From: an uncultured Anaerobiospirillum sp. | GTDB taxonomy: Bacteria; Pseudomonadota; Gammaproteobacteria; Enterobacterales; Succinivibrionaceae | Assembly: GCA_944393075.1 (NCBI GenBank) | Contig: CALXYZ010000001.1 | Coordinates: 6,610-70,609, forward strand | DNA: 64,000 bases | Direction: 5' to 3' | Shown here: positions 514 to 63,660 of the stretch, one piece after another | Layout: every line of letters starts with the position of its first letter | Position numbering within the stretch: the first letter of the stretch is position 1 | Position numbers and translations under genes: made by a program | Notes under the pieces: model-generated | The model's database searches: none | What the model was told of the DNA's origin: nothing | Seen by the model: only the letters and a program-made list of their open reading frames with translations

Positions 514-1020
514 TTACTCCAAGATTTCCTGAACGCTGAGACCGCGCTTAGCGGCGATCTGCTCTGGAGTACGCTGCGAAGCTAAAGCAGCAACGGTAGC
601 ACGAACCACATTGATTGGGTTGGTGGAACCGTAGGTCTTAGCTAAGACGTTGCGAACACCAGCAACCTCTAACACTGCGCGCATAGCACCGCCGGCAATA
701 ATACCGGAACCTTCAGAGGCTGGTTGCATATAAACCATAGAGCCCGAGTGCTCACCCTTCACAGCGTGGAATAAGGTGCCATCATTTAAGGAGATGTCCT
801 TATTAATGTTGCGACGGGCTTGCTCAATAGCCTTTTGAATAGCGGCAGGAACCTCAGAGGCCTTGCCATAGCCATAACCAACGTGGCCGTTACCATCACC
901 AACGACAGTTAAAGCAGTGAACGAGAAAATACGACCACCCTTAACCACCTTAGCGACGCGATTGACAGCGACTAACTTCTCTTGAAGCTCGCCAGCTTGA
1001 GTTTCATCTTTGTGCTGCAT
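514..1020 (-). CDS. rpsE: 30S ribosomal protein S5
   Basis: 168 aa; [53 protein letters not shown] matches S5; spc-operon order. Confidence 0.97.
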
Positions 1021-1032
1021 TTAAGTACACTC

Positions 1033-1386
1033 CTAGAACTTGAGGCCAGCTTCACGAGCAGCATCAGCCAGAGCTGCAACACGGCCGTGATACTTGTAAC
1101 CGGAACGGTCGAAAGCGACGGTAGTAACCTGAGCGGCTAAAGCACGCTCTGCCACGGTCTTACCGATAAGCTTGGCAGCCTCGATATTGCCGGTGTACTT
1201 AATGTCCTTGATTAAGTCCTTCTCTAAGGTGCTAGCGCAAGCTAAGACGTGGCTGTCCTTGTCGATGATCTGAGCGTAGATATGACGAGGAGTACGGGTA
1301 ACGACGAGGCGGGTGACACCGAGCTCGTGCATCTTAGCGCGGGACTTCGTAGCACGACGAATGCGCGATTGCTTCTTATCCAACAT
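1033..1386 (-). CDS. rplR: 50S ribosomal protein L18
   Basis: 117 aa; [12 protein letters not shown]...[14 protein letters not shown]...[22 protein letters not shown] matches L18. Confidence 0.97.
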
Positions 1387-27038: not shown

Positions 27039-27800
27039 ATGCTACCCGTTTTCATCATTAACTTGCCTCAAAGCACCGACCGTCTTGAATCGTGCCGTGA
27101 AAGCTGCCAGAAGTTAGGAATTAATCCAGAGATATTTGTCGCGACCAATGGCCGTGAGCTCTTAGCCCATCCAGAGAGCAATCCCGAGCTGTTCTCTAAA
27201 GTTGTACTTCAAGATCAAACTCATATTGATCTGCCACTTGGTCGTCATGTCATCATGGATGACCCACTCACACCAGGTGAAGTTGGCTGCTCTTTATCCC
27301 ACTTACGTCTCTACCAAGAAATTCTAGACCGTAAGCTAGACTACGCCTTGATTCTTGAAGATGACACTCTTCTCAAGGAGTCTTGCACTGAAGTCTTAAA
27401 GGCTATCGTAGAGCGCAAGGATCAGTGGGACATAGTGCAACTATCGCATGATAGCGGCCTAAGGCAGCTCATCAAGGCTTGTGATATCAAGCTTACAAGA
27501 GACATCAGCATGCACAGAGAAGGCATGGGATTCCTTGACCCTATATTTAATCGTCGTCGTTGCTCTTATCTCACATCATGCTATCTCATTAATGCCGAAG
27601 CATGTAAGCGTCTTATTGAAATAGGTTACCCTGTGCGTTTACCAGCGGACTTCCTATTAGGCTTTACCGCTTACCATGGACTGCGCTTATACACTTGTCA
27701 CCCACAGCACTTATTGCTTGATTGCCACAGCTTCGCTTCTACCATCAGCGCACAACCAGTCACTACACAAGCAGACACAACATTCCATAAGAAGCACTAG
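27039..27800 (+). CDS. Glycosyltransferase family 25, paralogue 2
   Basis: 253 aa; MLPVFIINLPQSTDRLESCRESCQKLG..., LEDDTLL. Collinear with 5310-6059 along the whole length (VGC..SHLRLYQEILDR.LDYAL.LEDD, IFNRRR, GYPVR.PAD, GLRLYTCHPQ). Confidence 0.85.
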   Translation: MLPVFIINLPQSTDRLESCRESCQKLGINPEIFVATNGRELLAHPESNPELFSKVVLQDQTHIDLPLGRHVIMDDPLTPGEVGCSLSHLRLYQEILDRKLDYALILEDDTLLKESCTEVLKAIVERKDQWDIVQLSHDSGLRQLIKACDIKLTRDISMHREGMGFLDPIFNRRRCSYLTSCYLINAEACKRLIEIGYPVRLPADFLLGFTAYHGLRLYTCHPQHLLLDCHSFASTISAQPVTTQADTTFHKKH

Positions 27801-27823: not shown

Positions 27824-30800
27824 TTATGTACGACTTAAGCGCACTTCGTTCTCATTGTTGTTGTCGCTAAATGGCTCGTAGTTTGGCAGCGGGATATTGA
27901 GGTACTCCAAGAGTGAGCGCAGCTCCATATCGATCTCATGGTAGACGTAACCGTTTTCCTGTCGCTCACTTATCACCTGTTGCAGCATCTCAAGGAACTG
28001 CGGCACACTCTTGATGTGGAGACGCTCGCGCAATGTAATGCCTCCATACTGCTGATCTCGGAAGTTAAAAGCAGCTTGTAACATTAACTTGAGGCCGAGC
28101 GTCAGGTAGAGCACAAAGTTCTTGCCGCGCATAAGCTGCTTGAGTGTTGGGTGCATGCGCAGAGCAAAAGCATTGATCTGGGCTTGCTCCACTTTGAAGA
28201 CATCAAGGCTCATGAGGTCAAAGGTGCTTTCACTGGCACGCAGGAACTCATGTGCTTTTAGGACTTCATCCACTTCTCCTAGGCGGTTACTGATAAAGAC
28301 CTTAAATGCGCCACTAGAGCTAGCTAAATCACTAGCAAAAATCTGCTGTAAGTGACGATCTAAACGAGCAAGCTCTCGTGTAGTGAGCGCCTCCGAGCCA
28401 AAATCAAAAGCGCTATCAGCAGCCTCGTCTTCATTGTCGAAGCTCACTAAAGACTTATCGTAATGACCACCAATTGGCGCGAAGTCATCCTCATAGCTAG
28501 CAATGCCACCGCTACCAACACCATCACCTAGCTGATGAGATGCCTCATCGCTATCAACAGCGCCCGCCCCAAAAACATCGTCATCAAAGTCATCGTCAGG
28601 CACATCAAAGAAGTCGCCGGCGTCATCCTCTTCCTCTGATAACAAATCACCAGTAGAGCCTAAAGCTTCTTTGTCATTGCTACTGTTGTGGCTAGAATCG
28701 ACAGCAATATCGTTGTCCTGCTGATCACTTTTACGAAGGAAAGAGAACACATCCTCAACTTCCTCATAGTCGTCATAGTCATCATCGTCATTGCCGACAT
28801 CGAGAAACGAGTCGTCTATGTCTTCATCACTAGCTGAGCTATAAGACATCCAGCTCTTAGTACCTGTACCACTACTAGGAACAGCGCCCGCCCCTGATAC
28901 AGGCTTAAACTCAGGCTCTGAGATAGATGGCCGCTTGAGCTTCTCATCAGAGATCACATCAGCAAAGGCAGAGGCACTGTGTGGGGTGGTATAAGCGGCT
29001 GCAGCCCGTGCCGTGCTCCTAAAAGAACGCTGTTGCTGCTGCTTGAGATGCTCTAAGCGCTGATTCTTACTAGTGCTTACATACTCTTCCAGTAACACAT
29101 CGATAGCATCGATGGCATCGAAATCAGATGCAGACAGAATCTTCTCAGGATCCTGTTGAGCCTTGGCCTCCATTAGAGTCTGCATAGCCTCATTGGTACA
29201 AGGTCTAACTACAGAATCACTCTGCCAAAACTGCTGATCTTGCGGCATGTTCAGTCTGTTAGCACGCGCAAAGCCTAAGAACTCATCGTCATCTTCAAAC
29301 GCATCACGCTCGTTCTCTTGAGCTAATAGTTCCTTGCGCTCTAAAGCCTCATCACGCAAAGCCAATAGAGGCTTTAAGTCGAACACGACATGGACAAAGA
29401 GATCAGCAGCCAGCTTTCGCGGCAATGCCGTTTGCGTACTACCAGTAAAGAGCTCACCTCTGCGGCTGCTACTGTTGCTACTACTGCCAATACCTTGTCC
29501 CCAAGCACTATCAGCGGCACTACTTACGTCATACTCAGGGTAGTGCTGTATCAGCTTAAAGGAGCAAACGAAGACATGGTGATCAGCGTTATAGTTTTTG
29601 AGCTGTGTAAGCTCAATTTCACAACGTCGCAGTAAGTACTGACTCACCAAGTGCTCTAAAGGCAGCGACAACATAAACTTGTCCCCTGCCTGATAGAGAT
29701 GGCGTAAGCTTGCAAAGAGACGATCAGTTCGGCTTGAGAGTAATACCACCTCACTTTCTTTTATTGGGTCGCTCTTTGACGCCTTAATCCCCTTCAGTAA
29801 ATCACTAGAACGAATGGTCTTAAGCGCAGGAGCTTTCTGCCCATTATTGTTAGCCCCACCACTCCATGAGCGCATATCGGTATTGATATCTTCAGCATCA
29901 ACACTTGCGCTGACGCTGGCACTTGCACTAACTCCAGCACTAGGCTCAGTACTAATTCGACGCGAAGAGACACGACTTTCCTCTTCACCTCCCATGGAAT
30001 CATTACCGCTCTTACTAGAGTCTTGGGAGCTGATCATGGCCGAGCTAATAGAACCTAAGCCACTAATACTGCCTAGGCTCTGTAAGGCTATTTGAGCTTG
30101 GCGCTGCAGTTCCTGTGGATCAGGAGATAGATGATGAAATTGTTGTTGGAAATCTTCTTCGCTCTTAGCAAAGTATGGAGACACGCTCGCCATAGTACTG
30201 GTGCGGGCGCTGTCATTTGTGAACGCAGCAACGTCACTTAAGGTAGTGCCATCACTGCCCGTGATCATGCCAAAGACACCGATCTCATTAGCCTTAGCAT
30301 TAGGGTCTTGCGGCAGTTGTGGCAAACCATGGTTCTTCACGTAACCACAGAGATCTTCAAGACTGGTATAGCTGCTGTTATACGTACTAAAGGCATGTGG
30401 GATACCACTTTTCGCACTCATTATGAGTAAAGTGCGGTCATCCTGCGACTGAGCAAACTGCTTAAGCTGCAAAGCAAGAGCTGTTCTACTAAGACGCGAG
30501 AGACTAAATCCCTGTGAGCCTACACTTGCTTTGGCATGAGAGGTCATGCCAGCGCCCGCACCACGAGTACCACTAATAGCACTCTGCTCTAACAGCGCTA
30601 GTTGCTTTTTAATGGCCTCATCTAGGTAGCTGTTGTTGGTGCTAAGCGAACACTCTTTGCTCAAGAGACGCATGGAGATGTTGCTTGGATATGCTCCATC
30701 AATGGCATAAAACACCTCGCCTTTGCTTTGACGACGTGCACACAGTCCCTGCAAAGTATCAAAGTAACGGGTGATATCAACATCACTGATGTCTTGCAGC

Positions 30801-31372
30801 AGAGAGTTGATATCCTTTTCCGTCATGCTATTTGGGTAAGCAAGGCGATTGTCAGCAGTAAAGTGCAGATATTGGCTAAAGTCGATGGTCTGATGAATAA
30901 GGCAGTAATAAGCAAGCGAGAGCAGCTTGATATTACGCTCTGCCACTGCAAAGTAGCGATTAAACGCTACCAAGAACGGAGTGTTGGCGATAACATGGTC
31001 TAAGACCCAAGTAGCACCAGACTGATAGAACTGCTGCACCTGCATGGAGTTGGCGCGAGCCACACCAGACTTAGGCTTGAAGACAAACTTGTACTCTTTA
31101 GTGGTAGCATGAGTGCCGCTCTCTACAGCTTCACGATAGACATTGTAGGAACGCAGCTCCGGAATAGTCTCTAAGAACTCATCCTTCCACACAACAAGGC
31201 CAGTCTCACCACCACCTAAAATCTTGCCGACTGACTTACGACCTTGGTTCGTGGCTACACGACCTTGGAACTTCTTGACAGTGTAAGGCCACAAATAGGC
31301 GTATTTGTTGGCAACCTTGACCACCTTTAGTGGTGGCAGCTCTGGCAAGTTAGATTGCGACGAGATAGCCAT
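27824..31372 (-). CDS. Large orphan protein (1182 aa) with long acidic and Ser/Gly/Ala low-complexity tracts; possible degenerate IS1634/IS4-type transposase derivative
   Basis: Uninterrupted 3.5-kb ORF. N-terminal KYAYLWPYTVKKFQGRVATNQGRKSVGKILG, then SGATWVLDHV, EVFYAIDGAY, LLIMSAKSG, and C-terminal RASESTFDLMS...ALRMHPTLKQLMRGKNFVLYLTLGLKLMLQ. From memory these resemble, in order, the conserved blocks of IS1634-family DDE transposases. No terminal inverted repeats seen. Confidence 0.5.
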   Translation of the reverse strand: MAISSQSNLPELPPLKVVKVANKYAYLWPYTVKKFQGRVATNQGRKSVGKILGGGETGLVVWKDEFLETIPELRSYNVYREAVESGTHATTKEYKFVFKPKSGVARANSMQVQQFYQSGATWVLDHVIANTPFLVAFNRYFAVAERNIKLLSLAYYCLIHQTIDFSQYLHFTADNRLAYPNSMTEKDINSLLQDISDVDITRYFDTLQGLCARRQSKGEVFYAIDGAYPSNISMRLLSKECSLSTNNSYLDEAIKKQLALLEQSAISGTRGAGAGMTSHAKASVGSQGFSLSRLSRTALALQLKQFAQSQDDRTLLIMSAKSGIPHAFSTYNSSYTSLEDLCGYVKNHGLPQLPQDPNAKANEIGVFGMITGSDGTTLSDVAAFTNDSARTSTMASVSPYFAKSEEDFQQQFHHLSPDPQELQRQAQIALQSLGSISGLGSISSAMISSQDSSKSGNDSMGGEEESRVSSRRISTEPSAGVSASASVSASVDAEDINTDMRSWSGGANNNGQKAPALKTIRSSDLLKGIKASKSDPIKESEVVLLSSRTDRLFASLRHLYQAGDKFMLSLPLEHLVSQYLLRRCEIELTQLKNYNADHHVFVCSFKLIQHYPEYDVSSAADSAWGQGIGSSSNSSSRRGELFTGSTQTALPRKLAADLFVHVVFDLKPLLALRDEALERKELLAQENERDAFEDDDEFLGFARANRLNMPQDQQFWQSDSVVRPCTNEAMQTLMEAKAQQDPEKILSASDFDAIDAIDVLLEEYVSTSKNQRLEHLKQQQQRSFRSTARAAAAYTTPHSASAFADVISDEKLKRPSISEPEFKPVSGAGAVPSSGTGTKSWMSYSSASDEDIDDSFLDVGNDDDDYDDYEEVEDVFSFLRKSDQQDNDIAVDSSHNSSNDKEALGSTGDLLSEEEDDAGDFFDVPDDDFDDDVFGAGAVDSDEASHQLGDGVGSGGIASYEDDFAPIGGHYDKSLVSFDNEDEAADSAFDFGSEALTTRELARLDRHLQQIFASDLASSSGAFKVFISNRLGEVDEVLKAHEFLRASESTFDLMSLDVFKVEQAQINAFALRMHPTLKQLMRGKNFVLYLTLGLKLMLQAAFNFRDQQYGGITLRERLHIKSVPQFLEMLQQVISERQENGYVYHEIDMELRSLLEYLNIPLPNYEPFSDNNNENEVRLSRT

Positions 31373-31837
31373 ATAAGAGTCCTACAAGTCTAGTGTTGTT
31401 GTGATATCACAAGTACTACACCTAGCACTAGGCGCAATGTGCACCACATAACATGAGCCAGTAATAGCTCATTAGAGTCTTTACTTGTCCAGCTAGTTTA
31501 CACTTAACCGTTTTGCATACTGTAGTAAGCGGCTTTTACTAGGTGATTACTATGCTATGGTCTTTAAACTGATCGTTCTCTTGGTCAGCTAGAGTACTAC
31601 TGGTACCGCTGCGGATCATCACTAGTAACTTGCAGGAGGAGTTCCAGCTACTATTGCTTCTTAGGATTTTAACCAAGACCTGCTCTAGGCCGCTTATGTC
31701 AGTTTGTTTTGTGCAATCAAGCTTGATAGTCAATGGAGCAAGAGCACACAAGAGCACTATCTGTCCACAGCCACATCAACAGCCCCAAGTTAAAATGACA
31801 AGCATTCAGCAGCTGTAAGACAAAACAATGTTATCAG

Positions 31838-47350: not shown

Positions 47351-50300
47351 TCAACGTCGTTGTCGCCACGGCACTGATGCCTCTGTAGCGGCGCCATCGG
47401 CAGCATCGGCTGCGTACACGTCGACAGCCTTGCCGCCGTTAGCGTAGGCGGCGGCCATCATTTGGACTTGAGCCTGAGCTAACTTGTTCTGCTCTTCAAT
47501 GAAGTGCAGGATCTTGTCGGTGTCGATGTTGCGCACGGTGACATCCATCTGATCGAATGGGATCTCGATGTTGTTGTCAGCAAAAATACGCAGCGTCTCG
47601 GTGCTTAAGAAGTCATACACGACCTTACGCTTACCAATCTCGTTGACGTAGAGCTCGCACATGATGGTCACGGCGCTTGGATCTAAGCTCTTTACGTAGA
47701 TTGCTGGGCGGTTCTCACGGTTGAGGTCACGGCAGCGACGAATGATACCGCGCAGCAGATCCTTAGCCTTATTGATATCCGCACCGTAAGCAATACCCAC
47801 AGCAAACTCGATCTTGGTCACGGTACTAGACAGCGACCAGTTGGTCAGGGCTGAGGTGATGAATTGTTTGTTAGGAATCACCACTTCTTTGTTGTCAAAG
47901 GAGATGATCGTGGTAGCACGGATACGAATCTTGTTCACGGTACCGGAGATAGTGTCTAGAGTGACGATATCGCCCACACGCAGCTGGCGTTCAAACAAGA
48001 TGATGATACCGGACACGAAGTTAGCGAAGATCTCCTGCAAGCCAAAGCCTAAGCCCACCGAGAGGGCGGCAACTAACCACTGCAAGTTATCCCAACTAAT
48101 GCCTAACGAACCGGCCGCCAAGATCACAGCTAATGTCGTGATGGCATAGGAGGTAATGAGCTTGACAGTGTAGCCGGCACTCTTAGCATTGCTACCTGAG
48201 CGCAGCATAAAGAGGCGCTCAATAAGCATTGGTAAGTTGCGGTTTAAGACCACAGCCACCATGACAATGATGACGGCTAACAGCACATCGCCTAACGATA
48301 AGGCGGTGGTGACCATCTTGCCATCAACCTCAGTGACGCTCTCATAGAGGTAGATCTCGTCTAAGTAGCTGAGCACACCTGCAAGGTCGTTCCATTGCAG
48401 ATACATAAAGTAGACAAAGACGACCAAGATGATGGCGTTAAAGAGCTTGTAAGCACGGTTATTGACAAGCTCCAAGCGGAAAGAAGATCCACTGCTACCA
48501 CCTGAGCTGCCAGAACCAGATCCTAAGCCCGAACCAGATCCCGAGACGCCACTTCTCTTATTACCAGCAGCGCGGCTATTGCGCTCGCGGTTAGCCGCAG
48601 CAATGGCTCTGTTGTTCATGGCATTGCTGCTGATATTACTGGAGCTAGAGCCAACACCTTGCGCGGCCAAGACCTCTTGCAAGTGCATACGGCGTACTTT
48701 GTCCATGATCTTGATCTCGGCGACGTAGAGAGTTCGACGGAGGGTTTGCGACAAGATCATGTAGGCAAATCCGATGTACAGCGTGAAAGCCACACGGTTG
48801 AGCAGCTGAATCACAGTGTAGTAGTAACCCAAGCACAGCATGAGCGTGATGGTCAGAGGCGTACAAATACCTAAGACTGCTAGGGTACAGGTCATCATGG
48901 TTGGCTGATACTGCTTGAAAGTGCGCCACACGATGATGCCAGCATACACGGTTAAGTAGAGGAAGCCTAAGATCATCAAGAGATAGCCCAAGCTATCGTT
49001 TGGAATCTTGGTTGGCTCTAACTCACGCATGTTGGCGATGGTCAGCATTGGAATACTGACGTACCAGATCTGATCGATAACCTGACGGCTACGGGCAATC
49101 TTGCCTGGAGCAAAGGAGAAGTAGCGCTGTACTACCGAGTTTGGCTCCAAGATGTGGCGCATATAGAGGAAGCAGCCCACATGCAGCGTCAGGTAATAAG
49201 TCAGCATCAGCTGATCTTTGAAATTATCCAAGGTGATAAAGATAAAGATTGAGCCGATGAAAGTGATGACCACCACTGATGGGATGATCATAAACAGGTG
49301 CAAGAACAGCGCACGCACTGTCAGCGTGTAACCATCAGTAGGCTTATCAAGATGCATTGCCAAGCGATTGGCGGTCTTTTTCAGACTTGGGTTGACCTTA
49401 GTGAAGATCAAACCCAAGATCGCTAATGGCAGGAAGATCTTGAGGTAGTTGACGGTGTTTTCGTGGGTGAACAGGTCGTTGCTCAGATACGACTTGATGT
49501 CGTCTACCTGCAAGAGCAAACGTGGCAGCGTGGTTGAGAAGAAGTTAAGACCAATACCGTTGTTGCTGGTAAGCCAGAACAAATGGTCATTGATCATGGT
49601 GCGCACACGTGAGCTCGCCTCGGTCAGATCACCATACTTAGCACGCAAGTCGGTAGCAACGGTCAGGCTATCAGACATAGCGTTGTAGAGCTGATCGTAA
49701 AGGTCGCGGCGTTGGCGCATGATCTGGACGAGCGTCTCGGAGAAAGGAGCTAACTCCGGATCGTCGCGCACCATGTCGTTGACATAGCTCTGTACATCAA
49801 AGATCTGCTCACGGAAGTTGCGTAAATCAAACATCCACAAATTGAGATTTGGGATGAGCTCATCGAGGTTAAAAGAGATGTTGATTTGTGGCAGCTCACC
49901 CTGCTGACGGTTAAGCATGCGCGATAAGATCACACTACCACTAAGATCAGTAAGTTGCTCTTGCAGATTCTGCTCAATTTGGCGGGTGGTGGCTAAAGCG
50001 GCGGTAACCTCCTGCACCTCACGCGTCATTTGCGCATTGTCGTTGAGCAACACTTCGATATGGCGAGCGATTTCTTTGTTGGTATCTGACTCACGCTTAA
50101 CCTGAGGTAAGAACTGGCCACTGACAGCTGCAGCATCAGAGGTCACACCGTCCACAGTAGACGAATCGAGGTTAGCGCTGCCACTCTCACTAGAGCTCCT
50201 AGTAGCCGTGCTCACCCCCAAATTGAAGTCAGTATCGGTAACAGTCAGCTGATTGCTCAGAAGCTCGTCTTGGGCTGCGCGTACCTTTTCTAAGTACTTG

Positions 50301-51460
50301 GAGAGGTAATCCTTATGGAGGTTGTAGATATGCAGTTTGTAGTTAGCGACATCTTGGAACACCGAGATCGAACGCAGCTCAGTTTGCAAAATCTCGTTGT
50401 GCTTTTGCTGCACTGCGATCTCAAACTGCAGCACCATAGTCTCATCACGGAGGGTGTTAGGGCTGTTGAGCAGAGTGTTGATCTTAGAGATACGGGCGTT
50501 GTTAGCCGAGATCAGGTTTTGCGCACGCGATGGTAAGGTCTGGAGCGAGTTGTAGGCCGAAGTGGCATCAGACAACTCGTTTTGCACCTCCAATAACTGG
50601 GCATTGAGCTGATCTAACAAGGCATTGATGCCATCTAAGTTCAGAGGGGTTTCGCTACTTTCGCCACCAGCGCCAATCTCACCACCTGCACTATCCTCAC
50701 TACCTGCACCTGCTGACGCGGCATCTTCACTAACATCATCGGTAGTAATAATCTCTGGTGGCTCTTGGGTATAGGTTTCATTGGCAGCAGCTAAGGCCTG
50801 CTCTAACTCCACAATCAGGTCTTGTGCTTGCTCTTGCTTGCTCTTGATACGGCGCTCTTCTTGGAGCAGATTCTCGTAGCGCGTCACGAGGCTCATACCA
50901 AGCTCAATAGCCTGTAAGGAGCGCTCTTTATCAGCATCAGACAGTTCTTTGTTGGCCTTAATAGCCTCAGAACGGGCATTGAGCTGCTTGCGGTTTAAAA
51001 TCCACTCACTTTGGACACTTTCATCAGGATCTTTGTTGTCTAAAAGTACGGCACTACTATCTTGAGTCAATGAGCCCACATCAGTGACGATATCGGATAG
51101 CACTTCTAAAGGAAGTGATGAACCTCCAGTACCAGTACCAGTGGCGGAGTTGGCAGCATCAGCAGCAGCCTCTCTTTCAGCAGGAGCCGCACCACCAGTA
51201 ATAGAGGTTTCGATAGCCGCGGCAATATCAGCCTCAGCATAAGATTGCTGCCAGGTACCGCTCACAGCCACGACTGCAAGGCACATAAACACGGCCAGCA
51301 GCCATGATAAAGACCGAGAACTAATCGATGATGTAGACGCAGAAGCAACCGCAGTAGCAGTCGTAGACGCAGCCACTGCGGCGTTAGCGCCAACGGCCGT
51401 CTGCGCTGGTAAAGCGCAGGAGGCTAGTGCAGCTTGATGAGCAAAGATAGTCTTGAACAT
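47351..51460 (-). CDS. MscS-family mechanosensitive channel, MscK/MscM-like (large periplasmic coiled-coil N-terminus)
   Basis: ORF is open to 51643. The ATG at 51460 gives MFKTIFAHQAALASCALPAQ (signal-like). Long Q/E/L-rich coiled-coil region, about 10 TM helices, then the MscS core EIFANFVSGIIILFERQLRVGDIVTLDTISGTVNKIRIRATTIISFDNKEVVIPNKQFITSALTNWS. Confidence 0.85.
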   Translation of the reverse strand: MFKTIFAHQAALASCALPAQTAVGANAAVAASTTATAVASASTSSISSRSLSWLLAVFMCLAVVAVSGTWQQSYAEADIAAAIETSITGGAAPAEREAAADAANSATGTGTGGSSLPLEVLSDIVTDVGSLTQDSSAVLLDNKDPDESVQSEWILNRKQLNARSEAIKANKELSDADKERSLQAIELGMSLVTRYENLLQEERRIKSKQEQAQDLIVELEQALAAANETYTQEPPEIITTDDVSEDAASAGAGSEDSAGGEIGAGGESSETPLNLDGINALLDQLNAQLLEVQNELSDATSAYNSLQTLPSRAQNLISANNARISKINTLLNSPNTLRDETMVLQFEIAVQQKHNEILQTELRSISVFQDVANYKLHIYNLHKDYLSKYLEKVRAAQDELLSNQLTVTDTDFNLGVSTATRSSSESGSANLDSSTVDGVTSDAAAVSGQFLPQVKRESDTNKEIARHIEVLLNDNAQMTREVQEVTAALATTRQIEQNLQEQLTDLSGSVILSRMLNRQQGELPQINISFNLDELIPNLNLWMFDLRNFREQIFDVQSYVNDMVRDDPELAPFSETLVQIMRQRRDLYDQLYNAMSDSLTVATDLRAKYGDLTEASSRVRTMINDHLFWLTSNNGIGLNFFSTTLPRLLLQVDDIKSYLSNDLFTHENTVNYLKIFLPLAILGLIFTKVNPSLKKTANRLAMHLDKPTDGYTLTVRALFLHLFMIIPSVVVITFIGSIFIFITLDNFKDQLMLTYYLTLHVGCFLYMRHILEPNSVVQRYFSFAPGKIARSRQVIDQIWYVSIPMLTIANMRELEPTKIPNDSLGYLLMILGFLYLTVYAGIIVWRTFKQYQPTMMTCTLAVLGICTPLTITLMLCLGYYYTVIQLLNRVAFTLYIGFAYMILSQTLRRTLYVAEIKIMDKVRRMHLQEVLAAQGVGSSSSNISSNAMNNRAIAAANRERNSRAAGNKRSGVSGSGSGLGSGSGSSGGSSGSSFRLELVNNRAYKLFNAIILVVFVYFMYLQWNDLAGVLSYLDEIYLYESVTEVDGKMVTTALSLGDVLLAVIIVMVAVVLNRNLPMLIERLFMLRSGSNAKSAGYTVKLITSYAITTLAVILAAGSLGISWDNLQWLVAALSVGLGFGLQEIFANFVSGIIILFERQLRVGDIVTLDTISGTVNKIRIRATTIISFDNKEVVIPNKQFITSALTNWSLSSTVTKIEFAVGIAYGADINKAKDLLRGIIRRCRDLNRENRPAIYVKSLDPSAVTIMCELYVNEIGKRKVVYDFLSTETLRIFADNNIEIPFDQMDVTVRNIDTDKILHFIEEQNKLAQAQVQMMAAAYANGGKAVDVYAADAADGAATEASVPWRQRR

Positions 51461-51536
51461 GGTGGGCAAGTCCCTACTTTGTTTGATCCTGAGCGAGCCA
51501 TAGCAGATATGCAGTATTAAGTACCACAAGCACAGC

Positions 51537-51582
51537 AAGCTCGAAGCTCGAAGCGCGAAGCGCAGAAGCACGAAAGCGAGCT
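51537..51582. repeat. Degenerate 7-nt tandem repeat AAGC(T/G)CG x6
   Basis: aagctcg aagctcg aagcgcg aagcgca gaagcac gaaagcg, upstream of the probable MscK-like start. Confidence 0.85.
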
Positions 51583-52249
51583 GTGGTGCGCTAACCGTAC
51601 CAAAGATGGCTTGTTTGCCATTATCGAAGCCTAAAAGAAACAAAGCAACTCACAGTGCTTGGATATGCAAGCTAGCTCATATGGCAATGGTCACGAGCCT
51701 TGATGGTAGGCGAATACTGGTCGCTTAGAGATATTGGTGCTACAACAGTGCAGTGGATTTTTTACCTACATATTTGATCAAATTGCGATTTTTCGTGCGG
51801 CAAAAGCCCGCGCAGCTGCATCAGAGGCCCAAAATTGTGGTATTATGTCGCGCAAAGTGAGCTTGAGGCCTCGTTTAAGGCTTAAAGATCACGTTTCTTA
51901 TGAGCAGCACACAAGATCACATCGTAGGTGATCTTTGATCCTGCCCTTCCTTAAGAGCCAAGCGTATTGCCTAAGCAAATGAGCTTAGCGTAGCCTCGCG
52001 TTTTGGTTTTCTCTTTTTCCTACAAGTTTAGATCCTCTGGGTTCTAAATCATGCGTGACCATGATGCATGTACCCCATGCAAAGCAAGCTATGCATGCAC
52101 TGTATGCACTGCTGCTTGATGTGATAAGGCATGAAGTCTTGCGGTGTGGTTGCATAAAAGCACAAATAAACAAGAAAAGGGAAAAGAGGAAAGTTGCCAA
52201 ACGCTTTGTTACCCGCGATACCCGAGGTCTTTAGGGTTCTAAAAGACAT

Positions 52250-54416: not shown

Positions 54417-54621
54417 CAAGCACAAAGTCACAATTGTTGCTAGCAAACAGTTTTGTCATAACAGCGCCTGCACCCTAGAGCCTGTGCTTTGCTGAGAGCT
54501 TTTCGCTTACTGATAGCAAAGCCAAAAATGCATTGATCCATTTCAAAGATATAGAACGACGACCGGTTTTCGGCAGCAAATCGTGCTAAGTTGAAAGACG
54601 ATGTTGCGTCAGGAGGTCGAA

Positions 54622-57600
54622 ATGTTCTTACAGCGTGCCGAGATTCAGAACTTCCGAGGAATACGTCATTTAACTGTTGATTTTGAGCGTGATACCACAG
54701 TATTGATTGGTGAAAACGCTTGGGGTAAATCGTCTTTACTGTACGCTTTGTTTGCGATCTTAGGTAAAGGTGAGAATCATCTGTGCACCTTCACCCCAGA
54801 CGATCTCTACATTCCAATTCGCCTCGATTCAGACCTTGAAGGCATTGGCGATGAAGCTAGTGATAGCGATGGAGAGGAGCTCAGTAAGGATAAGGCCCAA
54901 ACATCAGCCACATCTCAAGATGCTGCTCCAAAAGAGCAAGGCACCTCCACTACTGCTGCCCCTACAGTTTCTACTGCCTCCACTGTCTCTACAGCCGAGA
55001 CCGCTTCAGCATCATACGCTTCTGCTGCTACTGCTACTGCTACTGCTACCACTACTACTAATGCTGCTACTACAGAGACAACAGAGACAACAGACACCAC
55101 CAAAGGCGTCACCGTAGAGGGTGTGCTAGAGCCTAGTGCCTCTGAGCAAGAGGCTATTGAGCGCGGCGCCCGTGCTTTAGCTGCCGCTCAGTGCTGTCCA
55201 CCTGCACAGCAGCTACGTCAACTTGAATTCTTAAAGCCGATCAAGGTCATTACCACCCCTGACTATCAGCGCCGTTACTACAGCGTGCCTAATGCTAACG
55301 GTATGGGTCAGGTGATGCACATTGTCGACGTGCCTGTAAGTGAACTCAACGATGAAGAAAAAGCTGCTGCTTTTCCATCGCGTGCTCGCCACAACAAGCA
55401 TAAGAACAAGCACAAGCATGGCAAGCAACCAGCTCATACAGCTCATACAGCTCATACAGCCCATACAGCACAGGTACATCAAACACCTTTTAAAGGTCAG
55501 TCGGTCTCAGTGTCGCTGCGTCCACGTCAGTACACTGAAGCTCTGACCAACTTCCTTGCTGGTACTAGTGCGGCCCCTACCCATCTTGCTAATAGCAAAG
55601 CCCTTAAGAACACAGCAGCCAATGAGATTGCTGCTGCTTTAGCTGACAGCGCGGTTGAGGAGTCCTCAATTTCCAAGTCTTCACAGGCTTCAGCTGCTCT
55701 GCGTGGTATGTCTACCAAAGACATCATGAATGCCGTTGGTGAGTCCTTAGTCGGCAAAAGCGCCAAAGACATCAAGAAGCAAGCGCAGTCCGCTGTCACT
55801 GCCGCAGCAGAGATCACTGCTATCGGTACAAGTAAGGCTAATAGCAACGGCATTGGCAACGGCAATGGTAATGGTAATGGTAATGGCAAGCCTAAGCTCC
55901 ATCATGCAGCGCTCATGCTTGAATCCTTGCGACTGGCTCAACAAGCTGAAGCTCTTTATGAGCAAGGCTTACCTCTTTACTACAATCCATCACGCAGTGA
56001 GCTGATGGAGCGTGCGCAAAACGTCTTAAACGAGAAGGAAGGCTTAGAGCAAGAAGCTGTCGATAGCGCACGTGATGATATGGCCTTCTATGAGAGCGAC
56101 GTCTATAAGGACAAGGCTGAGAGTATCGTTATCGATCTCATTTTCTGTGAGAGTGATTATGGTGTCTTAAACTCGGTACCACGCTTCTCTGGTTTAAAGA
56201 ACGGTAGCTACTTAGGCGAGGATGGACTTTATCGCATCCACTATCGTGTCAGCGCTAAGATGCAGCTGATTGCCTCAAATGAAGCCCCTAATGACAAGAC
56301 TGCCGTTACGGCAGCCACTGCCACTGCTACTGGAGCTAGTGCTGGTGCTAATGCGGGTGCCGATACCGATGCTGACTATGATTCGACTTGCGTTCAAGGT
56401 GAGCACTTTGTGACTTGCCATGAGATCCTTGATGCTAAGGAGCAGCCAATCGAAGATAGCATCGCCAAGCGCATCATTCGTGAGCTCATCATCCTCAACC
56501 CATTACTGCGTATTCGTGACCGTCGAATGCTCAAGCCTCAGATGTATGAGGTAGTAGAGCAAATCGATCACCCAAAGGATGCCGCAAAGGCCCAAGCCAC
56601 AGACCAAGCTAATCTATCAGACACGGCCGTAGATATTGAAGTTGTCGCTACCCCAAATGCCAGTGCTAGTTCTAGTGCTAGTGCTAGTGCCAGCGCTGCT
56701 ACTACCGACAATACAGCTAATACAGCCAATGATGAAGGTGAAGAAGAGCTTGATTTAAAGACCATCTCGCACTTCTTTGCGGATCTGACCTCTGATGAGG
56801 ACTGGACTTCTAAGCAGATCAAAGACGGTATTGATGTGCTCAATACCATTGCCTCGAAGTACCTCGTCAACTACCAGAGTAACAACCTGACGACTACCTA
56901 CCACGTAGATCTTGATGCCATTCAAAGCCGTACCGCACGCGATATTGTGACGCACCCAGTGTCGATCAGTACCCTCAACTCACTTAAGAACGCTCTGACT
57001 GACTCCAAGCCATCAAGAGCTAGGTTCTTGTTGTCGCTGCTTGCTGGTGCCTTCTTGATGTCTAAGGGACAGCGAGAGATCGATGAACAGTCCCGACCAA
57101 TTTTGATTTTGGAAGACTTGGAGAGCCGCTTCCACCCTACTCTGCTGCTTAATCTGTGGGCTATCTTGCAGCTTCTCCCTATCCAAAAGGTGGTGACGAC
57201 CAACTCAGCGCAACTGCTGAGTGCTATGCCAATGAGCAAGATCCGCCGTCTGTGTAAGCAGTACTACGATGTGCGCTGCTACAGCATTCGTGATCGTGCC
57301 TTTAGCCGTGACGACGCCCGTAAGATTGCCTTCCACATCCGCATGAACAGACCAAACACCTTGTTCGCTCGCTGCTGGTTGTTAGTTGAAGGCGAAACCG
57401 AGGTTTGGGTCTTAAACGAAATTGCTGATGTTTTAGGCTTCAACTTAGCTTGCAGTGGTGTGGCTTTAATTGAATTTGCGCAATGCGGTCTCAATCCTCT
57501 GATTAAGCTAGCTAAGCAAATGGGTATCTCCTACCACGTCCTCACCGACGGTGATGACGCAGGACGCCACTATGCGCAAACAGTACGTGACTTCGTGGGC

Positions 57601-58770
57601 AATACCAATCTGCCAGATCACTTGAGCGTTATGCCTCATGTCGATATCGAGCACTATCTCTACACTTCAGGTTTTGCTGACGTGTACCAACGTGCGGCTA
57701 ACATCGCCTTGAAGAATCAGCCAGTGGTCTCTAAGAACAAGCACCAAAAGAGTCCACCACCATTAGATAGCATTGGTAATGAAGACGGCTCTAAGGACAA
57801 GAGTGCAGAAAAGAAATTTGATCGCGTCATTGATGTCGATGTGGCGAGCATCACAGACCTTGCTGATCAGCCAACTAAGTCCAAGAAGGAGAAGAACAAA
57901 GAGAAGGGTCAGGACAAGAATAAGGGTGGCAGCAAGCAAGCTGTGTTAAAGAACCACAGCTTAGATAGCGTCATCAAGAGCGTGCTGCACTACAACTTGG
58001 GCAAGAACGTCCAAGAGCTCTTAAAAGCGGTGAACCGTGGTCGTCTCCAGGGTCAGAGCAAAAAGGCGCAGATCATTGATATCTCACAGCTCTCTAAAGG
58101 TGACGTCTCGGCTTTCTACCACTACGTCCACAATCTCATTATGGAGATGCCACGCCCAAGCCATAACCTGACTAAGCGCCAGAGCCGTATCCTCAATATC
58201 TTAAAGAGCGAGCGTGCCTTACTCTTAGATCAGGTCAACCGCAATGAGCAGCGTCTCAACAAGCAAAATGCGGCCAATGCCGCTGCAGCTGCTGCTGAGA
58301 CTATGGCTAACCTCAACAAGAACAAGGCCAAAGCTGATAAGGACAAGGCCAGCGTCAACGCCAGCACCAGCGCAAGCACTAGCGCCTTTTCCAGAAACGG
58401 CAATAACAACAGCAATGGCAATGGTAGTGGTAGTGGTGGTAAGTCCAAGGTGGAAAAGGCCGATAAGATTGCCAAGATCGATACTAAGAACGCCTCTTCA
58501 GATGACAGCAAAGCAGTAGAGACCGAGCGCCTCAATGGCAAGACCACTAATGCCGCTTTTGGTGCTTGGTCAGATGCTGAGCTTAGTAAGAAGGGAATGT
58601 CGGTCAAGAAGGTGATCGAGGCGGCGATCCACAAGAACACCAAGCCAGGGATGGCGATCTTGGTTAGTGAGGCTATGCATCAGCGTGGCCCTGACTCCGT
58701 ACCGCTGCTCTTTAAGACCATGTTCCGTAAGATCAGACGCTTAGCGCAAAACGAGTTCGGCCTAGAGTAG
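54622..58770 (+). CDS. ybjD: OLD-family ATP-dependent endonuclease homologue (YbjD-like), greatly expanded by insertions
   Basis: The ATG at 54622 is preceded by AGGAGG (54611-54616). N-terminal MFLQRAEIQNFRGIRHLTV...VLIGENAWGKSSLLYAL (ABC/AAA Walker A). C-terminal FHIRMNRPNTLFARCWLLVEGETEVWVLNEIA...IEFAQCGLNPLIKLAKQMGISYHVLTDGDDAGRHY (Toprim). Final KPGMAILVSEAMHQRGPDSVPLLFKTMFRKI. These blocks match my memory of E. coli YbjD (about 550 aa); this ORF is about 1380 aa. Confidence 0.85.
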   Translation: MFLQRAEIQNFRGIRHLTVDFERDTTVLIGENAWGKSSLLYALFAILGKGENHLCTFTPDDLYIPIRLDSDLEGIGDEASDSDGEELSKDKAQTSATSQDAAPKEQGTSTTAAPTVSTASTVSTAETASASYASAATATATATTTTNAATTETTETTDTTKGVTVEGVLEPSASEQEAIERGARALAAAQCCPPAQQLRQLEFLKPIKVITTPDYQRRYYSVPNANGMGQVMHIVDVPVSELNDEEKAAAFPSRARHNKHKNKHKHGKQPAHTAHTAHTAHTAQVHQTPFKGQSVSVSLRPRQYTEALTNFLAGTSAAPTHLANSKALKNTAANEIAAALADSAVEESSISKSSQASAALRGMSTKDIMNAVGESLVGKSAKDIKKQAQSAVTAAAEITAIGTSKANSNGIGNGNGNGNGNGKPKLHHAALMLESLRLAQQAEALYEQGLPLYYNPSRSELMERAQNVLNEKEGLEQEAVDSARDDMAFYESDVYKDKAESIVIDLIFCESDYGVLNSVPRFSGLKNGSYLGEDGLYRIHYRVSAKMQLIASNEAPNDKTAVTAATATATGASAGANAGADTDADYDSTCVQGEHFVTCHEILDAKEQPIEDSIAKRIIRELIILNPLLRIRDRRMLKPQMYEVVEQIDHPKDAAKAQATDQANLSDTAVDIEVVATPNASASSSASASASAATTDNTANTANDEGEEELDLKTISHFFADLTSDEDWTSKQIKDGIDVLNTIASKYLVNYQSNNLTTTYHVDLDAIQSRTARDIVTHPVSISTLNSLKNALTDSKPSRARFLLSLLAGAFLMSKGQREIDEQSRPILILEDLESRFHPTLLLNLWAILQLLPIQKVVTTNSAQLLSAMPMSKIRRLCKQYYDVRCYSIRDRAFSRDDARKIAFHIRMNRPNTLFARCWLLVEGETEVWVLNEIADVLGFNLACSGVALIEFAQCGLNPLIKLAKQMGISYHVLTDGDDAGRHYAQTVRDFVGNTNLPDHLSVMPHVDIEHYLYTSGFADVYQRAANIALKNQPVVSKNKHQKSPPPLDSIGNEDGSKDKSAEKKFDRVIDVDVASITDLADQPTKSKKEKNKEKGQDKNKGGSKQAVLKNHSLDSVIKSVLHYNLGKNVQELLKAVNRGRLQGQSKKAQIIDISQLSKGDVSAFYHYVHNLIMEMPRPSHNLTKRQSRILNILKSERALLLDQVNRNEQRLNKQNAANAAAAAAETMANLNKNKAKADKDKASVNASTSASTSAFSRNGNNNSNGNGSGSGGKSKVEKADKIAKIDTKNASSDDSKAVETERLNGKTTNAAFGAWSDAELSKKGMSVKKVIEAAIHKNTKPGMAILVSEAMHQRGPDSVPLLFKTMFRKIRRLAQNEFGLE

Positions 58771-60384: not shown

Positions 60385-63300
60385 GTGGCTGACAAAAACG
60401 CTATCAAGAGACTAATCTTGATTGACGGCTCATCTTTCTTGTATCGGGCCTATTATGCAGTAAAGCAGAACTTTACGACTAAAGAGGGCATTCCTACTGG
60501 CGCTACCTTTATCATCACGCGCATGTTCCGCAACCTGCTCGACAAGTTCATGGGCGATAAGTTTGTTGTGGTCTTTGATGCTAAAGGCCCATCCTTCCGC
60601 CGCGAAATGTACGCCGAGTACAAGGCCACCCGTCCACCAATGCCTGACGATCTCAGAGCACAAATCGATGCTGTGCACTCTATTACTGAGGCTATGGGCT
60701 TTCCTTTAGTGTCGGTACAAGGTGTAGAGGCCGACGACGTATTGGGATCGTACACCCGCAAAGCCCAAGAGCTCGGTATGGAAGTCATTATCTGCACCGG
60801 CGATAAAGACTTAGCTCAATTAGTGCAACCAGGCGTCTCTATTCTCGATACCATGCGCGACACTATGTTTGACGCGGCTATGGTGCAAGAGAAGTACGGT
60901 GTGCCACCAGAGCATATCGTTGACTTCCTCGCCCTCAAAGGCGACTCCTCCGATAACATCCCCGGCATGAAAGGCGTTGGTGACAAGACTGCTGTCGCTG
61001 TGATCTTGGCCCTAGGTGGTGTCTTTGATATCAAAGAGCACCTCGATAACGTTAAGGATCTCAAATTCCGTGGCGCCTCTACCTTTGCCAAGCGCTTTAT
61101 GGAACAGTGGCCAGAGATTGAGCTGAGTTACCGCCTCGCCACCATCAAATGCGACGTGGAATTGCCTATAGCTATCGAAGACCTCCCATATCCAAAAGAG
61201 GATAACGATACTCTGATCGCCTTATTTGAGCGCTTAGAGTTCCATCGCTTTGCTGCCGAACAACGTGTTCGTAAGTTAGAGCAAGAGGGTAAAGCCGCCT
61301 CTTTATCCGCAACCACAGCGCCCGCCCCTATGGCCGCTGCAGCTTCTGCAGCTGCAGCTCCTACGACCGCGGCCGCTGCCGCTGCTAATACCACGAGCCC
61401 AGCTGAGGCGGGTGCAGTAGATGCTGCAGATGCAGACACTGCTACCAAGAAAGACTCTCCTGCTGCTGAGGACGCTATCTTGATTCCGCAGAAGCTACGT
61501 CGTCGTGGTCGCCCATCCTTAGCCGAAAAGCAGAGCTTACTAATCGCCGCTGGTGCAGCAGCAGCAACTACAGAGACTACTACTGCTGCTACTGATGACG
61601 ACGATCCAGATCCAATTATGGAAGCGCTAGCCGCCAAGAGGCTGCAGGCTGAAGCTGCCACAGCTGCTAAAGCCGCGGATGCAGATGCTAATGCTGATGC
61701 TAATACCGAGGTTCAAACTGGCACCAAAACCCAACCCAGCACCAGCACCAGCACTAAAGGCACTGCTGCATCCAACAAAAAGAGCGGCATGGCTGACATC
61801 TTGGACATCTCCAAGCACCGTAACCACGGTAACGTCAATCAGTACTTGTCTAGCTTTAAAGTGGTCACTACCACTACAGAGCTGCGCGATATGATCCGTG
61901 CCATCAAGGCCGCGCCTTTATTTGCTTTCTACTTAGAGGAGAGCTCCTCTCACACCCCTGATAGCAGCTTGATTGGTGCTGCCTTTAGCTTGGGTGATGG
62001 TGCCTCATACTATGTACCTCTGCGCCATAGCTACATTGGCGTGGATGCGCAATTACCAGCCACCCAAGCCATCAACGCGCTGCGTACTATTTTTGAGAAA
62101 GAAGACCTGCCAAAAGCTTGCTACGACGTCAAGCTCAACCGCTTATACTTGCACTTCTTAGGTATTGAGCTCAAGGGCTATGTAGCCGATCCTCTGATCA
62201 TGGCTCATATCATTGATTCCTCCCGCGCGGGTGAACTTATCAACCTCGCCCAAGACTTCCTAGAGTACGTGCCTCTAAACAAGCAGCACCTTTCCCCCGA
62301 GAAAGTTGTCAGCATTGCTAAGATGGATATAGACATCTTTAAGGACTTTGCATGCGAACAGGCCCTGCTTGCCTATAAGCTCTATGAGGTCTTAATCTCC
62401 AAGATTGCTAACTTAGAGAATGGCAAGACTATACTTGACCACGAAATGCAGGTGCTTGACGTGCTCTTTGATATGGAGAGCATTGGCGCCCTCTTAGATG
62501 GCCGCGTCCTGACCCGCCAAGCCCGACAGCTCAAGGAAGACATGTATTTAGTACAAGAGGATATCTTTGACCTAGCTGGCCACAAATTCAACATCTCCTC
62601 ACCAAAACAGCTCTCTAAGGTGCTGTTTGAGGAACTGGCTATCCCATATCCACGCAAGACCCAGAAGTTTGATAAAAACGGCAACCGATCGTACTCCACC
62701 GCTGATGACGTCTTAAACGAGATTGGCGATGACTACGACATCATCCGCAAGATTCAGCGCTATCGCATGCTCTCTAAGCTAGTATCTACCTACGCTGACA
62801 AGCTGCCATTACTTATTTCGCCACGCACTGGCCGCATCCATACTTGCTTTAACCTAGCAGGCACGGTCACCGGTCGCCTGTCGTCATCTGACCCTAACTT
62901 GCAGAACATCCCTGCGCGTACCAAGGAAGGTAAACAGATCCGTGGCAGCTTTGTTGCACCTGAGGGCTACCACATCGTATCAGCCGACTACTCGCAAATT
63001 GAGTTGCGCTTGATCGCCCACTTCTCTCAGGATCAAAACCTCATTGAGGCTTTCCATCAGCATCAGGACATTCACCGCGTCACTGCCGCCGAGGTCTTAG
63101 GCAAGAACATCGCGGATGTCACTGACGATGAACGTAAACATGCTAAGGCCACCAACTTTGGACTGATGTACGGCATGAGTGCCCATGGTCTCTCGAAGCA
63201 AACCGGCATGAGCTACGCTGATGCCAAGAACTACATTGAGCGCTACTTTGATAAGTACCCTAGCATCAAAGCCATGATGGACAAGGTCATTGCTGAGGCT

Positions 63301-63660
63301 AAGCAGCACGGCTACGTCACCACCTTGCTGGGCAACCGCGTCTTTATCAAGGGCATCAATAGTACCGGCATGGGCCAGCGCACAGCCGAGCGTGCGGCAA
63401 TTAATGCCCCAATGCAGGGTAGTGCTGCCGACATCATTAAAAAGGCCATGGTTGAGGTCAATGCCTATATCAAGACTCTGCCGAAGGACAGCGTCCACAT
63501 GACGCTGCAGGTGCATGACGAACTGGTCTTTGAGGTACGCGATGACCTCGTCGATGAATTCTGCACCAAGGTCAAGGAAATCATGGAGCACGTAGTCTCG
63601 ATCTCCGTGCCACTTGAAGTCGGTATCGGCATTGGCGTCAACTGGGCTGAAGCCCACTAG
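60385..63660 (+). CDS. polA: DNA polymerase I with about 170-aa low-complexity insertion in the 5'-nuclease/Klenow linker
   Basis: GTG start after [24 protein letters not shown] (5'-3' exonuclease). C-terminal [53 protein letters not shown] (family A polymerase motifs A/B/C). Confidence 0.96.

Follow-up and report, generated by a model that had tools for sequence, protein, structure and literature searches.

A large single-copy protein of Anaerobiospirillum is very probably an exapted transposase of the IS1634 family

The stretch of Anaerobiospirillum DNA analyzed here, 64,000 nucleotides in length (hereafter designated the window), carries on its minus strand a long gene of 1182 codons plus a stop codon, which is read without interruption (Table 1). 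A preliminary description, made from the DNA letters alone, had regarded its product as an orphan, possibly a swollen and catalytically degenerate derivative of an IS1634/IS4-type transposase, and had noted the uninterrupted open reading frame (ORF) running convergently with a GT25 gene. The latter arrangement was confirmed, the two genes being separated by a gap of 23 bp. The neighborhood consists of lipo-oligosaccharide genes together with parC, plsC, and yicC, and, farther off, rho and polA. The start of the long gene is common to all its orthologues, in which AGGA, or GGAG as its equivalent, precedes an ATG GCN start, so that both the ribosome-binding site and the start codon are kept.

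Table 1 Features of the long gene and of its surroundings. Positions are those of the window, and residues are those of the 1182-residue protein.
Feature	Position	Strand	Description
GT25 gene	27039-27800	(+)	Family-25 glycosyltransferase (PF01755); convergent with the long gene
Whole long gene	27824..31372	(-)	Single-copy, very probable derivative of an IS1634-family transposase
Residues 1001-1182	27827..28372	(-)	C-terminal module: YREK helix, GK.FV.FLA helix, C-terminal part of the transposase
YREK remnant	28208..28252	(-)	H..L...E......S, residues 1041-1055
Residues 801-1000	28373..28972	(-)	Insert C2; disordered, strongly acidic
GC-rich 14-mer	28557..28570	(-)	GGGGCGGGCGCTGT in insert C2, read as GAGAV
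Residues 920-934	28571..28615	(-)	Acidic-aromatic motif DFFDVPDDDFDDDVF, a copy of D-F-[FL]-x-V-x-D-D-D
Further 14-mer, exact	28881-28894
Residues 671-800	28973..29362	(-)	Insert C1; helical, with a 47-residue helix at 748-794
Residues 540-670	29363..29755	(-)	Module matching the second-Asp strand and the start of the N3-C1 spacer
S547 codon	29732..29734	(-)	Position of the second catalytic Asp (D2)
Residues 346-539	29756..30337	(-)	Insert B; mostly disordered
Further 14-mer, variant	30199-30212
Residues 301-345	30338..30472	(-)	Conserved strand pair LLIMSAKSGIPHAF, homologous to LLMLVNQETGMPLYY of the transposases
Residues 246-300	30473..30637	(-)	Insert A; partly helical
Further 14-mer, variant	30550-30563
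Residues 119-245	30638..31018	(-)	Helical; AGATWVLD block and first catalytic strand; start of the Tn5 match
D225 codon	30698..30700	(-)	Equivalent of the first catalytic Asp (D1), kept as Asp; D, E, or Q in other long forms
Residues 1-118	31019..31372	(-)	Beta-rich N-terminal module common with IS1634-subfamily transposases
Shine-Dalgarno-like AGGA	31380..31383	(-)	7 nt ahead of the ATG
MscK-type channel	47351-51643	(-)
DNA polymerase I	60385-63660	(+)
Further 14-mer	about 61315-61328

The protein encoded in the window is not an orphan, because long homologues exist. A word-based search returned nine homologues of 1016-1187 residues, the two named ones being hypothetical proteins of Anaerobiospirillum, and an exhaustive profile search of 1.84 billion representative proteins gave 90 matches, about 17 clusters of which are long forms (888-1796 residues), while the rest are about 600 residues long or fragments. 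An orthologue with 97% identity to the window protein was among the relatives found, and long forms are present in cultured Anaerobiospirillum isolates, where those with names are annotated as 'hypothetical protein'. When the long-form profile was run over 98 genomes of the same family (Succinivibrionaceae), a long form was detected in 10 of the 11 genomes of the window's genus, the window's own genome (G000) being counted. Each of the ten genomes (G000-G009) has one locus, including the single copy of G000, with the reservation that these are drafts, so that repeats may have been collapsed. In other genera, the profile matched ORFs of 600-680 residues, often multi-copy; the match covers the first 240 positions, with E values as low as 1e-42, and, less strongly, the last 150.

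The short relatives of the sister genera (600-650 residues) are true IS1634 transposases, scoring 160-200 bits with NF033559, the cut-off of which is 100 bits, and matching PF01609 (DDE_Tnp_1) as well. In the complete genome G078, the element encoding one of them is about 2.1 kb long, is bounded by terminal inverted repeats of about 14 nt, and occurs in at least five copies of 99.5-99.9% identity. By BLASTP, the window protein aligned with the short transposases at residues 9-236 (32-35% identity, E 1e-28 to 8e-30), at residues 1020-1168 (27% identity, E 2e-7), and weakly at residues 541-612 (E 0.02), all three segments lying in the same order in both. Moreover, a hidden Markov model (HMM) constructed from 34 transposases alone detected all of the 30 long forms as collinear pieces with E values of 1e-40 to 1e-79, the window protein itself being matched in collinear segments at E 1.6e-69. 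Comparison of the long-only profile with the transposase-only profile by hhalign gave a probability of 100 and an E value of 1.3e-52 over 579 columns, that is, nearly the whole transposase. In a quick unrooted tree, the long forms were parted from the transposases by a single branch with a support of 100 in the Shimodaira-Hasegawa-like approximate likelihood ratio test. The other IS1634-class ORF in the window's genome, which is the only one (L031:1078-2841, plus strand, on contig C105), encodes 587 residues scoring 117 bits with NF033559 and belongs to a different subgroup; considered as a cognate active copy, it was rejected, having no similarity to the long protein.

The relationship was further analyzed with an AlphaFold model of the full protein, which was built on 52 aligned sequences and had a predicted TM-score of 0.65, with folded modules at predicted local distance difference test (pLDDT) values of 85-95. 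Confident modules were found at residues 11-100, 115-260, 300-350, 540-620, 650-700, 740-795, and 990-1170, and disordered segments at residues 365-534, 626-647, and 799-981; predicted disorder covers 398 of the 1182 residues (34%). Among representative solved structures, the best match found by VIA-align was Tn5 transposase (1MM8), with Z 12.7 and a root-mean-square deviation of 6.3 over 304 residues at a sequence identity of only 10%. The match spans residues 119-1131 of the model, leaving residues 1-118 outside, and the predicted catalytic core is thus built from segments almost 900 residues apart. The runners-up (Z 8.6 or below) were nearly all proteins with an RNase-H fold: Argonaute PIWI domains, endonuclease V, NurA, and the ISCth4 and piggyBac transposases. 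The model therefore presents an RNase-H-like core in a Tn5-type arrangement, spread over residues about 217-1090. Collectively, the profile, BLASTP, and structural matches support the earlier suggestion of an IS1634/IS4-type derivative, and the homology was recovered through the HMM of the relatives and hhalign, not through a direct Pfam or NCBIfam match.

Compared with the IS1634 transposases of the Succinivibrionaceae (NF033559, 600-650 residues), the window protein has the same modules in the same order, including the long spacer and the Tn5-like core, but is about twice as long, with three or four inserts. The large inserts that had been supposed from the sequence were borne out: there are about 580 extra residues relative to the transposases, corresponding to about 49% of the protein. 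The impression that about half of it is low-complexity sequence agrees with this share of inserts but exceeds the disorder predicted. As for the IS1634-like islands listed in the preliminary description, four were placed correctly, namely the N-terminal block, AGATWVLD, the first-Asp block with D225, and the C-terminal GK.FV.FLA with the YREK region. The fifth, LLIMSAKSG (residues 315-323), had been assigned to the second Asp; it aligns instead to the strand pair LLMLVNQETGMP between D1 and D2, and the true D2 position is Ser547.

Conservation is distributed unevenly over this map. Residues 1-118, presumed to form a DNA-recognition module, are 62-65% identical among long forms, and the C-terminal module (residues 1001-1182) is 48-50% identical, each with 0-1 indel columns; over larger distances between species, identity is 48-65% in the N- and C-terminal modules, with the same scarcity of indel columns (0-1), and 17-42% in the inserts, which have many indels. 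In the AGATWVLD block, G119, T121, and D125 are invariant in the long forms and the transposases, and in the module of residues 540-670 H661 is invariant and D665 nearly so. Conserved islands also occur within the inserts: L.SLGS...LG.I at residues 430-442 of insert B and FWQS..V.R..T at residues 715-726 of insert C1. Insert A holds a 31-residue Gly/Ala/Ser stretch confined to the window species pair. Insert C2 contains 28% Asp and Glu and has a net charge of -47; the acidic-aromatic unit D-F-[FL]-x-V-x-D-D-D is present in 1-5 copies in the window clade, the number varying between close species, and occurs once among the 34 transposases. Insert C as a whole (residues 671-1000) sits in the N3-C1 spacer, and most inserted residues fall between the second Asp and the Glu. 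A long spacer between these two residues is known for IS1634 transposases (PMC2266710); it measures about 500 residues in the window protein versus about 180 in its relatives.

The catalytic positions were read from local hmmsearch alignments of the long forms to the transposase HMM. Among the transposases, Asp is present in 32 of 34 at D1 and in 32 of 34 at D2, and those displayed retain the signature Y-(2)-R-(3)-E-(6)-K. In the window protein, the D2 strand reads VVLLSSRTD, as against ivVsDRGY in the transposases, and this position is S or A across the window clade and D in G004 and P0020-24. Within the YREK remnant, the Tyr is replaced by H1041 (A in the window clade, variable elsewhere), the Arg by L1044 (L in most lineages), and the Lys by S1055 (S in the window clade, variable elsewhere). 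The Glu is retained as E1048, as also in P0014, G003, and G004; most lineages have T, N, K, Q, or S there. The triad differs again in other branches, being E-D-E in G004 and D-D-(S/Q/T) in P0020-24, while the G005 clade has Q in place of D1 and K, S, or T in place of the Glu. The window protein (D225, S547, E1048) has neither an intact D-D-E triad nor a YREK-type signature, and, as judged from these residues, catalysis is lost. That different branches have lost different essential residues while the rest is conserved indicates that their common ancestor could already dispense with catalysis.

The presence of D225 and E1048 in the window species, and the long D2-to-Glu spacers that IS1634 transposases naturally have (PMC2266710), could also suit a working transposase of an unusual mobile element, grown large and kept at very low copy number. 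Such an explanation appears very improbable, however, in view of the Ser at D2 and of a YREK signature that has lost its Y, R, and K, and also of the behavior of the gene as a genetic element. The IS1634 family was defined by De Palmenaer et al. 2008 (PMC2266710), and its elements are characterized by a length of 1.5-2 kb, terminal inverted repeats, target duplications of 5-6 bp, and usually multiple copies. The long gene is single-copy and has no credible terminal inverted repeats, as had been noted before: a search for inverted repeats bracketing it gave chance-level pairs only, and the sole bracketing pair has one arm within the GT25 gene. Searches by tblastn with residues 1-345 against 72,556 plasmid and 50,697 phage records gave no match. 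Furthermore, the gene is syntenic in nine other species and its tree has the same topology as that of polA, as follows.

In the nine other species of the genus that have it, the long gene resides in the same chromosomal region, which also contains polA and rho and the genes for a Vut_1 transporter, an MscK-type channel, a DUF2813/OLD-type ATPase, and a phosphoribosyltransferase. In three species, drawn from two subclades, polA is followed directly on its own strand by the long gene, after gaps of 22, 46, and 213 bp; in three more the long gene is one gene removed from polA, whereas 29 kb separate the two genes in the window species; the site just downstream of polA is probably the ancestral position. 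For eight species, the tree of the N- and C-terminal modules agreed with the polA tree in 5 of 5 splits, with a correlation of pairwise identities of r = 0.87. The ratio of nonsynonymous to synonymous substitution rates (dN/dS), estimated by the Nei-Gojobori method on two close pairs, was 0.15 (G001 versus G008) and 0.20 (G006 versus G007) for the whole gene. By segment, the G001/G008 pair gave 0.11 for the N module, 0.05-0.08 for inserts A, B, and C1 (0.05 for the equivalent of insert B), and 0.01 for the C module, the transposase-derived modules ranging from 0.01 to 0.11; the acidic region of insert C2, at about 0.45, is the only segment with relaxed constraint. The strongest constraint is on the N-terminal and C-terminal modules.

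These values bear on the alternative that the gene is a decaying relic, a dead insertion sequence (IS) copy drifting to loss while filling with low-complexity junk. Such a fate would fit the different loss of catalytic residues in each lineage, the fast-evolving acidic region with its many indels and dN/dS of 0.45, and the settling of a genome-wide GC-rich DNA word four times in the inserts of this species. We regard it as hardly tenable, because the frame is open in every species (896-1796 residues), dN/dS is low both overall and in the N, D2, and C modules, next to no indel columns occur in the N and C modules, whose rate of divergence is about that of polA, and the start codon and ribosome-binding site are conserved. 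By the criteria for domestication taken from Bertels et al. 2017 (PMC5581495), the gene occurs in about one copy per genome without recent duplicates, is absent from the plasmid and phage records, descends vertically, and is maintained under purifying selection with an intact frame. Of the two fates offered in the preliminary description, 'domesticated or decaying', the former is thus favored on the grounds of purifying selection, the conserved chromosomal region, and the polA-congruent tree. We consider it very probable that the 1182-residue protein is an exapted IS1634-family DDE transposase, which became fixed in the chromosome of the ancestor shared by the sampled Anaerobiospirillum species, probably just downstream of polA, and has since been inherited vertically, having kept all modules, lost catalysis, and gained inserts.

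Several observations weigh against this interpretation. Searches of Pfam, NCBIfam, and PDB sequences with the 1182-residue protein gave zero matches even at E <= 10, and neither it nor other long forms matched NF033559 or PF01609. In addition, the PADLOC defense models gave no match and an ESM Atlas search no usable match with this protein, and the transposase profile matched none of the PDB sequences. Foldseek on the full model returned nothing at E <= 0.001. The assignment to the family accordingly depends on transitive and profile evidence and on one structural aligner. A genome of the same genus that is 93% complete (G010) has no long form, and residual metal binding is conceivable from the presence of D225 and E1048. 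Finally, a sister genus (G011) encodes a separate swollen derivative of the same transposase subfamily, of 1309 residues (L033:6571-10500, plus strand), of which the N module stands near the transposases (E 1e-43), the C module is weak, and the insert measures about 840 residues; it has no NCBIfam match and stands beside normal transposase copies in the same genome. This derivative is probably an independent expansion and shows that a transposase can swell in this way on more than one occasion.

Enlargement is not peculiar to the long gene. The polA product has 1091 residues in the window (960-1183 in the genus) and the MscK-type channel 1430, both with large linker inserts between Pfam domains, and we take these two and the DUF2813 protein of the window to be unusually long compared with typical lengths. 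Swelling by low-complexity linkers thus looks like a lineage-wide trait, and that of the long protein is partly a habit of the genome.

Some further observations were made on the region of the long gene. The DUF2813/OLD-TOPRIM ATPase of the window (positions 54601-58770, plus strand; 1389 residues) matches the Gabija GajA models with 278 bits and is much longer than the span of the Pfam model; its gene is conserved in the vicinity of polA and, in several species of the genus, in that of the long gene as well. In G005 and G007 (L028:1-7699 and L026:848-7382), the long gene is followed directly by two or three tandem MmeI-type restriction-modification genes. Between the long genes of G006 and G007 (L027 and L026), synonymous divergence is about 0.5 but only 0.03 in the last 195 codons or so, and this drop suggests recent recombination or conversion at the 3' end.

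The 14-mer GGGGCGGGCGCTGT found in insert C2 was traced beyond the gene. The free-standing word (CA)GGGGCGGGCGCTGT(T) is strongly over-represented throughout the window's genome; the exact 14-mer occurs 77-131 times per genome in four genomes of the subclade, 0-9 times elsewhere in the genus, and 0-1 times per genome in 87 genomes of sister genera; for a reversed control, the count is 0-1 throughout. The copies sit mostly within low-complexity linkers of very long ORFs, where one strand gives SGAGAV and the other TAPAP; since these readings differ, the word is conserved at the DNA level. In this it resembles uptake-signal sequences, which settle in coding regions that tolerate them, although the word is about ten times rarer. 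As a binding site or conserved feature of the long gene it was rejected, the orthologues in three motif-rich genomes being without a copy.

Tn5-type transposases contact the element ends with their N-terminal part and hold the dimer with their C-terminal part. In the exapted protein, the N-terminal module may still bind specific DNA, and the C-terminal module would probably pair the protein as a dimer, as in a Tn5-type synaptic complex, without cutting. The acidic-aromatic motifs, carried on flexible loops, might recruit a partner, or else fold back on the DNA-binding surface and mask it. As to the cellular role, a DNA-bound factor of replication or repair and a trans-dominant blocker of IS elements of its own subfamily are both plausible and constitute our two best guesses.

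The blocker has a precedent in Tn5 Inh, an N-terminally truncated, non-catalytic form of transposase that has a role and is produced from the same gene as the active enzyme. A corresponding inhibitor in Anaerobiospirillum would guard the genus from its own-subfamily IS by occupying element ends or poisoning dimers, and the modules most constrained here, those for N-terminal recognition and at the C-terminus, are those that an inhibitor needs. The 600-residue subfamily transposase is absent from all 11 genomes of the genus, as compared with matches in 9 of the 16 other genera. This contrast is, however, a single evolutionary event and is therefore not statistical evidence; moreover, G011 carries transposases and a long derivative together. 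Unlike Inh, the window protein has no active partner in its genome, and neither an active cognate transposase nor its ends coexist with the long gene in G000 or in the genus, so that long-term selection for an inhibitor is hard to explain. Near-matches to the end of the G078 element exceed the reversed control modestly across the window's genome, and the ends of this element, which is one active relative, are not enriched there. Taken by itself, the inhibitor is in our estimation unlikely.

Also on the unlikely side, we place the alternative in which the protein acts as a DNA-bound factor with replication or repair proteins, its acidic-aromatic motifs recruiting the partners. It draws on the position next to polA, on the same strand, in three species of two subclades, and on the report that IS1634 transposases bind the beta sliding clamp via a C-terminal motif (PMC4549789). 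Against it, the gene of the window species is distant from polA, the adjacency elsewhere may only mark the original insertion site, and neither D-F-F-x-V nor the C-terminal tail E-V-R-L-S-R matches the clamp consensus QLxLF. For the same reason, D-F-F-x-V was rejected as a beta-clamp motif, and its likeness to the tail of the single-stranded DNA-binding protein (SSB) is speculation only; SSB tips need a free C-terminus. The most elaborate version would be a dead Tn5-like transposase that recognizes and pairs specific DNA sites uncut while an evolvable acidic-aromatic array on a disordered loop brings in replication or repair proteins, having begun downstream of polA, with which it may still be co-transcribed in some species. 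This full combination we rate as lower still in likelihood.

Further results count against these functional proposals. No conserved DNA motif was found upstream of the long gene across species, and no REPIN-like abundant 16-mers were found in the flanks, where the maximum genome-wide count of any 16-mer is 3. The N-terminal module folded alone (pLDDT 73) gave a best VIA-align Z of 3.1 and a Foldseek E of 0.68, that is, no solved relative, and no fold is therefore assignable to it. Searched for in the window's genome, cognate IS ends corresponding to the terminal repeats of the G078 element were not present at the locus.

The N-terminal module was also observed outside the long gene. Small ORFs of 144-175 residues (L034:2832-3359 and L036:3019-3453, both minus strand, and also in G002-G007) have the N-terminal beta module only, followed by a basic stretch and an acidic-aromatic tail, and are conserved between species; they may represent a second, separate domestication of the DNA-recognition module. 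On contig C75 of the window's genome, a 424-residue ORF (L039:1192-2466, plus strand) resembles the module weakly (E 2e-6) in the part preceding a hotdog-fold thioesterase domain.

Domesticated transposases are well documented in eukaryotes and rarely in bacteria, for which the tyrosine-type RAYT serves as the textbook case. RAYT/TnpA-REP has been described as the first prokaryotic domesticated transposase (PMC8266576). The long gene resembles RAYTs in being single-copy, chromosomal, vertically inherited, and housekeeping-like. The two differ in that RAYTs are HUH/Y1 enzymes with their catalytic residues kept and with abundant flanking REP/REPIN sequences, whereas the window protein is of the DDE type, degenerate, and without abundant flanking repeats. 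A further parallel is offered by ALP1 and ALP2, derived from Harbinger (PMC7282668, PMC4890758), in which the DDE fold was kept after catalytic loss and put to non-enzymatic use; these are eukaryotic proteins of a different superfamily, and their partners, in the Polycomb complex, are known. In the literature found, no exapted DDE transposase of the IS4 or IS1634 type is described in bacteria.

The present case offers, side by side, active relatives that are still jumping in sister genera and a derivative that is fixed, syntenic, and co-diverging with polA across the genus. The different residue losses date the loss of function before the split of the lineages, and selection still favors the N- and C-terminal modules. 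The profile-based route recovered a gene missed by all curated models, so that such 'hypothetical proteins' can be named. Since cultured Anaerobiospirillum isolates carry the long gene, its DNA targets and partners are directly testable.

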